Source: a virus (lineage: Duplodnaviria > Heunggongvirae > Uroviricota > Caudoviricetes). From it: DNA of 23,506 nt. Where the stretch lies: positions 1 to 23,506 of IMG/VR virus record IMGVR_UViG_648276653_000011, one strand, 5' to 3'. This document shows positions 18,958 to 20,654 of this stretch, one piece after another; position 1 is the first letter of the stretch, and each line of letters opens with the position of its first letter. The notes under the pieces are model-generated. The model was not told the DNA's origin and ran no database searches. It saw only the letters and a program-made list of their open reading frames with translations. Position numbers and translations under genes: made by a program.

Positions 18958-19173
18958 TTACTCTCCTCTCGCAGCCTTACGCCTGTCTTCTTTAATCTTG
19001 AAATAAAGATTTGTCAGATACGTCAGCAGGCCAAAAACCAGGCTACCCAGCACACCGATTGCAGCCCACTGTGACGGAGTTACTTTATCGAGTAACTGCA
19101 ATGCCCAGAAACCAGCATTACCCGCCGATGTGCCATAGGCAACACCTGTTGTTAACTTATCCATTGATTTCAT
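18958..19173 (-). CDS. Class II (S21-type) pinholin with dual-start motif
   Basis: From the internal ATG: [71 protein letters not shown] (71 aa), very similar to recalled phage 21 S; Met1/Met4 dual start; the track ORF 18958..19248 is an upstream extension. Confidence 0.8.
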
Positions 19174-19392
19174 ATCCTCACCCCGATGTACACGGATGGT
19201 GCAATATGTTTGAAAAGATCGGAGTCTACGGGGTAGTTTTGACAGCACACGTTGTTCTCAACGGCGCTAAAAAAACATACACATTAAAAATGTGGGTAAT
19301 TATTTTGAAAGAAAATCATATATAAAATAATAATACGAGAAATGTTTTCATATTTAGTGTACTGTATACGGCCATTTATACAGGAAAAGCCT

Positions 19393-19563
19393 ATGTCAGA
19401 ACGTAAAGACTCAAAATCACGCCGTAATTATCTCGTTAAATGCTCCTGCCCAAACTGCACCCAAGAGTCAGAACACAGTTTTTCAAGAGTACAAAAAGGT
19501 GCCCTTTTGATCTGCCCTCATTGCAACAAAATATTCCAGACAAATCTTAAAGCTGTAGCCTGA
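19393..19563 (+). CDS. Small zinc-ribbon protein (56 aa from ATG; hypothetical)
   Basis: MSERKDSKSRRNYLVKCSCPNCTQESEHSFSRVQKGALLICPHCNKIFQTNLKAVA with CxxC...CxxC pairs; AGGAAAAG RBS; AT-rich; the track ORF starts further upstream at 19342. Confidence 0.4.
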   Translation: MSERKDSKSRRNYLVKCSCPNCTQESEHSFSRVQKGALLICPHCNKIFQTNLKAVA

Positions 19564-19622: not shown

Positions 19623-19650
19623 AAAAAACCCGCCTGAGCGGGTTTGAGAT
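19623..19650 (-). terminator. Intrinsic terminator (AAACCCGC-TCAG-GCGGGTTT plus T-run), possibly bidirectional
   Basis: Perfect 8-bp GC-rich inverted repeat; on the minus strand followed by TTTTTTATTAT; ~280 nt downstream of cspB and ~60 nt downstream of the plus-strand zinc-ribbon ORF. Confidence 0.5.
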
Positions 19651-19925
19651 TGTGGTGCTTTTTGTGGGAGTCATCCACTTACGCACTTTGTTTTGCCATG
19701 CCAGCAGTTAGCTTCTGCTGTAAAACTATTCATGCAGCAAACCTGCACTTCACCACAATGGTTAGCATACTTTTCCTGATTAAGGTTTTGCCAAATATGC
19801 TGGCCATTGTTTCATGTATTGGACCTCCTTATTTTTATTAAAGAGATCCAATATTCACTACTCTGTCCGTATCTCTACTCAGGCATCAGCCTTCTTCGTT
19901 ATCGTATACAGACGAGCGATGAATT

Positions 19926-20141
19926 TTAATCAGTAATGATGACATTTGCTGCTGCAGGACCTTTAGCACCACTCTCTATAGAGAAGGTAACCTTTTGACC
20001 TTCAAATAAGGTTCGATAATTATCATTCTGAATCGCAGAAAAATGCACAAACACATCTTTACTACCATCAACAGGAGAAATAAAGCCGAAACCTTTATCA
20101 GCGTTAAACCATTTTACTAAACCAGTCATTTTATTTGACAT
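19926..20141 (-). CDS. cspB: Cold shock protein CspB-like (CspA family)
   Basis: 71-aa [74 protein letters not shown]; canonical RNP motifs KGFGFI and VFVHF; TAAGGAAT RBS. Confidence 0.9.
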
Positions 20142-20441
20142 TCTACATTCCTTAACTTGAGCCTTTCGGCATAAATGGTTTGCATAACAGAAACGACTTC
20201 GTACTTAATTGGAGAGACTCAAAGAAGGAATAAGTGAATAACACCTGAAATGAGAACTGCTTTAGTAAACTACTTCGTATATCGTCTGTTCTTCAAACCG
20301 ACGCAATCATTAACGCATAGTTGAACATATGAAGCAATGTTTATTTTAGACATCCAGCCATCTTCAACCCCATCAAAAAACTATAGCTTTCTTCAGGAAC
20401 GTGTGTATAGTGCGCCAAGTTATCAGTATTAAGGAATTTTT

Positions 20442-20654
20442 TTGTCCCGTAAAATGACAGGAATTGTCAAAACCTTTGACGGCAAAAGCGGCAAGGGTCT
20501 TATCACCCCATCCGATGGTCGTATCGATGTCCAGCTTCATGTTTCAGCGCTCAATCTCCGCGATGCAGAAGAAATTACCACCGGATTACGCGTGGAATTT
20601 TGCCGGATAAATGGTCTGCGTGGCCCTTCAGCTGCCAATGTTTACCTTTCATGA
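20442..20654 (+). CDS. cspF: Cold shock-like protein CspF/CspH family
   Basis: 70-aa [73 protein letters not shown]; apparent TTG start with AAGGAA 5 nt upstream; divergent from cspB. Confidence 0.85.

Follow-up and report, generated by a model that had tools for sequence, protein, structure and literature searches.

The window, that is, the whole stretch of 23,506 nucleotides that we have analyzed, contains a small open reading frame between a holin gene and the cold-shock gene cspB. This frame is ynfU, a gene already annotated in Escherichia coli as coding for a small zinc-binding protein. The features of the locus are collected in Table 1. A preliminary description, made from the sequence alone, had noted a frame of 56 amino acids at this place, which has CPNC and CPHC motifs and a basic N-terminus and is preceded by a Shine-Dalgarno sequence of its own, and all of this is seen in the DNA. 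It had also placed the frame antisense to the late operon. This is correct: holin and cspB are both on the minus strand, and ynfU runs opposite to the late transcription, which depends on Q. The same arrangement is present in an annotated locus of identical sequence, with terminase genes followed, further along, by rzpQ, rrrQ, ydfR and essD, then ynfU, then cspB, cspF and ydfT(Q).

Table 1. Features found around ynfU in the window.
Feature	Position	Strand	Remarks
Holin gene (essD/essQ type)	18958-19173	-	Flanks ynfU
Distal sigma-70-like promoter (putative)	19305-19334	+	TTGAAA-18-AATAAT; alternative to the proximal one; E. coli-specific, 10/12 matches
Proximal promoter (predicted)	19337-19365	+	Phylogenetic footprint: -35-like GAGAAA 19337-19342, 17-nt spacer, -10-like TACTGT 19360-19365
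Inverted repeat	19362-19383	+	CTGTATA-N8-TATACAG; 7-bp stem, overlaps the -10 and the leader, ends at the Shine-Dalgarno; Escherichia type only
Shine-Dalgarno AGGA	19382-19385	+	7 nt 5' of the ATG; (T)CAGGA block kept in 78 distinct upstream sequences
ynfU coding region	19393-19563	+	ATG at 19393, TGA ending at 19563; 56 codons plus TGA
Terminator hairpin	19626-19645	both	8-bp stem, 5 GC; 62 nt 3' of the ynfU stop
cspB	19926-20141	-	Cold-inducible CspA-family gene, the usual ynfU neighbour
cspF	20442-20654	+	Divergent from cspB; third gene of the ynfU-cspB-cspF cassette

The window protein belongs to the YnfU family in two collections: PF23499 of Pfam (108.4 bits against a cut-off of 27, model positions 1-49 of 49) and NF038384 of NCBIfam (80.3 bits against a cut-off of 36, model positions 1-51 of 52). 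It is identical in 54 of 56 residues to YnfU of E. coli K-12 (b4776, YP_010051186.1), from which it differs by two conservative substitutions, D6N and I47V. In K-12 MG1655 (NC_000913.3) the gene lies at 1640805-1640975 in the cryptic prophage Qin, flanked by essQ and cspB, so both are the same gene in the same position, and 760 nt around it have 99% identity between window and K-12. The belief that Qin has no annotated gene here is thus out of date: b4776 is annotated in NC_000913.3. The elements themselves are different: Qin of K-12 is decayed, and the window belongs to a Qin-like phage record of greater completeness. A megablast search with a 451-bp region around ynfU finds it in 1650 of the 5426 complete E. 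coli genomes of RefSeq; among the matches listed, every E. coli record names the gene ynfU.

The frame itself is therefore nothing new, it has had a name, an annotation and demonstrated translation since 2019. It was discovered by Weaver et al. (bioRxiv 10.1101/511675, later published in mBio) by means of Ribo-RET, which profiles stalled initiation complexes. The same authors put an SPA tag on YnfU at its chromosomal locus and detected the protein in LB at 37 C, where it was more abundant than any other of their newly found small proteins. They also described its two zinc knuckles of the CPXC type, and homology modelling gave them a moderate match to PA0128. Of the K-12 small proteins found by Ribo-RET, YnfU is the most abundant, and no other among them has a motif that can be recognised. 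The gene was recovered independently by PIRT-seq (PMC12350097), and in the SProtFP paper YnfU serves to illustrate small proteins which may bind metals. In the literature which mentions ynfU beyond Weaver et al. and PIRT-seq, we have found no function added to these data.

Some database records of this family are defective. Five proteins (P0002, P0007, P0009, P0049 and P0056) are mis-started or fused forms of YnfU with 70-186 amino acids, and records of this kind are misnamed, for example as "permease" or "aspartate carbamoyltransferase regulatory subunit". In the phage records 2H10 and Tritos the gene is present but unannotated.

The 56 amino acid translation is MSERKDSKSRRNYLVKCSCPNCTQESEHSFSRVQKGALLICPHCNKIFQTNLKAVA. 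It has cysteines at positions 17, 19, 22, 41 and 44; the CPNC and CPHC knuckles are separated by 18 residues. Six of the 16 N-terminal residues are K or R and only two are D or E; the pI of the whole protein is 9.4. When the homologues in databases are aligned, P20, C22, P42 and C44 are invariant, while C19 and C41 are kept in at least 90% of the sequences, their replacements being rare and found in single database sequences. The window protein has all six of these residues (C19, P20, C22, C41, P42, C44) together with the loop that follows the first knuckle. This loop, S26-E-H-S-F-x-R-V-Q-K-G36 (SEHSFxRVQKG), is invariant or nearly so in YnfU homologues, and the basic N-terminal arm is also conserved (R4 and K5; R10, R11 and N12). 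Zinc binding is predicted from the motif, here as in the literature, and the ligands would be C19, C22, C41 and C44. The remaining cysteine, C17, is not a ligand, because two intact homologues (L078 and L081) have S or N in its place. A longer frame of 73 amino acids, starting from an ATG at 19342, was considered and rejected: the homologues, the conserved Shine-Dalgarno sequence and the annotation all start at 19393.

When each species was represented by a single genome, a scan for ynfU yielded 80 loci, which come from Enterobacteriaceae except for a few that are evidently mislabelled bins. The frame is intact in 80 of the 81 homologous coding regions found in species-representative genomes; they comprise 74 distinct coding sequences and 66 distinct proteins. 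Pairwise Nei-Gojobori comparisons of these 74 sequences give median dN/dS values between 0.05 and 0.12 in all divergence bands, and the other reading frames are open in almost no pair. The preliminary description admitted that the frame might turn out not to be conserved, or not to be translated. Neither is the case: the dN/dS values speak for conservation, and Ribo-RET, the SPA tag and PIRT-seq for translation. A chance frame, or a decaying relic with no function, might be proposed in view of the small size of ynfU and its location in AT-rich intergenic prophage DNA, nothing else favours it; the low dN/dS, the intact frames and the experimental detection of the protein refute the proposal, to which we give practically no credit. 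ynfU is a genuine, translated and strongly conserved gene, and its product is a basic protein of the C4 zinc-ribbon type.

The YnfU family has few members and does not extend beyond enterobacteria. An exhaustive profile search among 1.84 billion representative proteins found only 41 clusters at E<=0.001, a tiny number. When 301 Enterobacteriaceae genomes were drawn evenly, 88 of them had a PF23499 match that exceeded the cut-off.

About 75 nt upstream of the ynfU start codon are conserved in every genomic context. The invariant columns in all contexts are G19339, which would be the third position of the -35 element, and T19360, A19361, G19364 and T19365 (TAnnGT), so that the order is always a G, 20 nt, T-A-n-n-G-T, CC and the Shine-Dalgarno sequence. 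From this pattern, we infer that the conserved block is a sigma-70 promoter with a weak -35 element. The transcript would start near 19372 and have a leader of about 20 nt. The distal promoter in Table 1 is a possible alternative, but sites of this kind are no more numerous in the region than in shuffled sequences, and only its A-rich block is partly conserved at homologous loci. This block (19323-19334) could instead act as an UP-like element for the proximal promoter.

The inverted repeat which overlaps the leader is probably not a conserved regulatory structure. RNAalifold predicts no conserved pairs when 28 ynfU leaders from different genera are compared. We considered an RNA switch, a thermometer or an operator in the leader and discarded them: the fold of the whole leader has a z of -0.6 and the repeat is lineage-specific. 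Two binding sites were also rejected. A LexA box in the repeat (TACTGTATA) fails, since 14 nt, and not 8, separate CTGT from ACAG. In a candidate Zur box in the promoter spacer (GAAATGTT), one half-site matches the Zur consensus; the other half fails, and the matching half-site is not conserved in other genera.

A terminator had been described after the frame. The hairpin does exist, but the good T-run is on the minus strand (6 of 8 T, as opposed to 3 of 8 on the plus strand), it thus faces cspB more than ynfU. It is a shared, bidirectional terminator of the two convergent genes. The same hairpin is found 63-84 nt downstream of ynfU in Escherichia, Citrobacter, Superficieibacter and one further Enterobacteriaceae genome (L044); the Citrobacter hairpin is symmetric, with 5 of 8 T on one side and 5-6 of 8 A on the other.

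The 3' tail of cspB, about 280 nt long (19650-19925, minus strand), precedes this terminator and holds AAGGAGGT and an 11-codon frame. A search of the tail with Rfam gave only matches below threshold, Trp_leader (21.7 bits) and isrK (18.3 bits). In other genera, the spacer between ynfU and the csp gene has 96-410 nt. Several E. coli genomes carry an IS200C in the spacer between ynfU and cspB, just 3' of ynfU (for example L099, strain EH01-18-04-A), and IS1 insertions are found in the cspB-cspF region of other E. coli genomes.

In E. coli, Qin-like prophages carry the ynfU-csp cassette as cargo, in the slot which separates the late promoter from the holin gene. The orientation of ynfU, with its own predicted promoter antisense to the late operon, implies a cargo gene expressed in the lysogen, not a part of the lysis or late-regulation machinery. 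Other phages have a similar arrangement: in 2H10, Tritos, HannyBb and PhiR63_1, ynfU is found with cspB/cspF adjoining the holin gene, and in a Klebsiella phage ynfU alone adjoins it. Escherichia phage PHB10 (L004, 3501-3665) has a homologue with 61% identity beside a cspB/cspF-like pair, in this case outside the lysis region, near umuDC, an SOS-response-associated peptidase and an integrase.

Most loci are of a different kind. Lysis genes (holin, endolysin or a homologue of Rz) are found within 2.6 kb of ynfU in only 11 of the 80 species loci. The gene has a fixed chromosomal site in Enterobacter, with a tautomerase on one side and an ArsR-type regulator on the other; metabolic and PTS genes flank it in Klebsiella, and ten further loci have housekeeping or other ordinary chromosomal flanks, different in each case. 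ynfU is thus not specific to phages, it is a stand-alone chromosomal gene across Enterobacteriaceae. The PHROGs collection contains no family for YnfU; the best match (E 0.0055, 17 bits) and the others are to families of unknown function and other lengths. None of the PADLOC-DB models of anti-phage defence matches YnfU at E values up to 1. The preliminary description had guessed that the protein might be a phage regulator or an inhibitor of a host factor. This guess is somewhat weakened, because most family members occupy ordinary chromosomal sites outside prophages, and because YnfU has neither a PHROG family of its own nor a PADLOC match.

The feature which recurs in these different contexts is a cold-shock gene. 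A gene with a cold-shock domain starts within 1.3 kb of ynfU in 57 of the 80 loci, in at least nine arrangements. These genomes have 5-11 such genes in 4.6-5.8 Mb, for which the proximity expected by chance is about 0.5%. When the flanks are clustered, 38 distinct contexts result, and 30 of them include ynfU linked to a csp gene. In most genomes the neighbour is of the cspA/cspB type, at a distance of no more than about 1 kb, and a cspF-type gene often accompanies it. In the window, cspB coincides with a match to the cspA thermoregulator of Rfam (RF01766, 158.8 bits, 19910-20302), and a full-length match to this element is found at the csp neighbour in 13 of the 14 ynfU loci tested. Within E. 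coli, ynfU (1652 records) and cspB-cspF (about 1616 at >=90% identity) are equally frequent. The linkage has exceptions: 23 of the 80 loci have no csp neighbour, and the more distant family members, whose identity is about 40%, are solitary, with no csp gene beside them. A lipid A acyltransferase of the LpxP type was considered as another recurrent neighbour, as locus L086 and a preprint suggested, and was rejected, being found in only 2 of the 80 loci.

Two structured RNAs were detected not far from ynfU in individual genomes: a FourU RNA thermometer (66.9 bits; L072:3717-3781, minus strand) 1.2 kb away in one Enterobacter genome, and a C4 antisense RNA (65.6 bits; L083:3933-4020, minus strand) 1 kb away in Enterobacter mori.

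A comparable case is the YmcF/YnfQ family (PF23641). Its members are also small, have two cysteine pairs and are genomically attached to cold-inducible csp genes, being encoded directly 3' of cspG and cspI. YnfQ is unrelated to YnfU in sequence, as BLASTP gives no alignment. In K-12, ynfQ (L011:257-445, minus strand) has a CPCC...CIFC motif and an ATT start, and it is co-directional with cspI and lies 10 nt behind it. ynfU, on the other hand, appears to have its own promoter and has a variable orientation with respect to csp. The cspI-ynfQ cluster of K-12 also contains a small frame, ynfR. YnfR rises strongly upon cold shock (PMC6001520). Two unrelated mini-proteins with cysteine pairs, YnfU and YnfQ, thus accompany cold-shock genes in Qin.

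A model obtained with AlphaFold2 from 19 sequences predicts a zinc ribbon with four strands (residues 12-16, 25-29, 38-40 and 47-49) and one short helix (30-34), with a mean pLDDT of 72. Together with the Pfam and NCBIfam families, this agrees with the preliminary description of a small C4 zinc-ribbon gene with its own expression signals. No significant fold is found when the model is compared with Foldseek: the best E values are 0.42 (PDB) and 0.15 (BFVD), and none is below 0.1. The top PDB hits, which are not significant, are small zinc-ribbon proteins on archaeal ribosomes. In two profile searches of PDB sequences, the ribosomal protein eL42/L44e (E 0.005-0.02) and the DNL finger of Tim15 (E 0.0067) lead; bL33 is found only at E>=0.35, and the HVO_2753-like proteins and PA0128 are also far behind. 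In Pfam and NCBIfam, every match of the window protein to a family other than YnfU is below its cut-off. An assignment of function by fold or by sequence profile was therefore discarded, as Foldseek and the PDB profiles give only sub-threshold hits to zinc ribbons. Zinc ribbons with unrelated functions routinely match each other in such searches. The resemblances to eL42, to the DNL finger and to ribosomal zinc ribbons are weak and serve as leads only.

The similarities are nevertheless worth describing. YnfU, eL42/L44e, bL33 and the HVO_2753-like archaeal proteins bound to ribosomes are all basic C4 zinc ribbons with roughly 50-90 residues, and eL42 and YnfU share the local motif C-P-x-C-x-x-x-(S/T)-E-H-S. 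The eL42/L44e family does not include YnfU: NF004425 of NCBIfam gives 10.7 bits against a cut-off of 87, the region of the first knuckle is the only one which aligns, and eL42/L44e has about 92 amino acids instead of 56. The likeness to ribosomal zinc ribbons is only a lead, which would suggest a mode of binding to RNA or to the ribosome.

The DNL finger Tim15/Zim17/Hep1 (PDB 2e2z) aligns with YnfU over both knuckles and the strand-loop, with the pattern CxxC...S-H-(S/T)...K-G..L-I..CPHC. YnfU falls outside this family, with 13.6 bits for PF05180 against a cut-off of 27. The D-N-L motif is absent from its consensus, in which the second CPxC is followed by K(L/I/V)F and a variable tail. The N-terminal zinc ribbon of PhnA/YjdM (PA0128, PDB 2akl) is recovered weakly in the PDB profile searches (E 0.23-0.7), and here too YnfU is below the cut-off of the family (PF08274, 22.2 bits against 30.8). 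PhnA, unlike YnfU, is a two-domain protein. Finally, Com of phage Mu is a zinc ribbon of 62 amino acids, which binds the leader of the mom mRNA and activates mom translation. With YnfU, it offers an analogy of mechanism only, that of a small C4 zinc ribbon carried by a phage and acting through RNA: Zn_ribbon_Com has no match in the window protein, and one distant member of the YnfU family reaches 18.8 bits, against a cut-off of 22.9.

These data show that ynfU is an autonomous gene, constitutively expressed and strongly selected, whose location in the genome is coupled to that of cold-inducible csp genes. We are confident of the overall picture, a csp-linked cargo gene expressed in the lysogen, in which a role with RNA or the ribosome is included only as a minority possibility. 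As to this role, the zinc ribbon, the basic N-terminal arm and the SEHSFxRVQKG loop might together form a surface for nucleic acids, through which YnfU would bind RNA or the ribosome. It could then share a pathway with the RNA chaperones encoded by the neighbouring csp genes; when the temperature shifts, it might, for instance, modulate translation or the structure of mRNAs. The eL42 profile hits, the archaeal ribosome hits of the fold search and the pI are weakly in favour of such an RNA- or ribosome-binding factor, which we propose as a tentative model, more probably wrong than right. A more specific version, in which YnfU would be a dedicated accessory factor of CspA-type cold shock and not a phage protein, appears to us rather doubtful. 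Here YnfU would bind RNA or the ribosome, cooperate with the cold-inducible Csp chaperones or tune them, and travel with their genes in a mobile cassette, ynfU-cspB(-cspF), which would have reached no fewer than 30 different chromosomal and prophage sites of Enterobacteriaceae. The linkage with csp can also reflect the joint mobility of the cassette or a shared regulation, and not a shared pathway. The tie to cold shock consists of the genomic linkage to cold-inducible csp genes; the published blots were made at 37 C, and YnfU is not strictly cold-induced, because it is well expressed at this temperature without cold shock.

The same properties may be read in other ways. YnfU could be a modulator which binds a larger host or phage protein (RNA polymerase, DnaK or Csp, for instance) and inhibits or redirects it, which is close to the guess of the preliminary description. 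Such partners are what Weaver et al. (bioRxiv 10.1101/511675) expect for most small proteins. The weak profile match to Tim15/Zim17, which extends over both knuckles and the loop, leads to an Hsp70 escort protein, and the invariant loop could equally be a protein interface. Nevertheless, the zf-DNL score stays below its cut-off and the D-N-L motif is not conserved, no recurring neighbour besides the csp genes points to a partner, and there is no match to PADLOC or to an annotated PHROG family, so we consider this possibility somewhat improbable. A small DNA-binding transcription factor similar to Ogr/Delta, acting on the adjacent csp gene or on other targets, is unlikely. A basic zinc ribbon which is persistently linked to csp, with csp promoters within 1 kb, would suit this function. 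The position of ynfU with respect to csp is variable, however (upstream, downstream, convergent or co-directional), which would not be expected of a dedicated local regulator; moreover, the Pfam matches of the window protein include neither Ogr_Delta nor any other family of transcription factors, and the distant members of the family have no csp neighbour.

Much less likely is a role limited to metal handling, in which YnfU would buffer or store zinc, or be its chaperone, and would have no macromolecular target. It would agree with the four predicted cysteine ligands, with an annotation which mentions only zinc binding and with the example given in the SProtFP paper. But one structural zinc for 56 residues would make a poor store, and genes of metal homeostasis do not recur near ynfU. 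The strongest conservation, besides, is in the loop and the N-terminal arm and not in the ligands, which suggests a binding surface. Of all these observations, the linkage to csp genes, which recurs in many genera and at many insertion sites, provides a modest lead to the function of YnfU, and one that can be tested.

Some details of the element which carries the locus may be added. The 23.5-kb IMG/VR fragment is estimated to be 47% complete. Over the 451 bases around ynfU, the window has 100% identity with a prophage found in E. coli strain 20KM2222; this prophage carries terminase genes together with a KwaB-like (Kiwa) gene beyond hokD.
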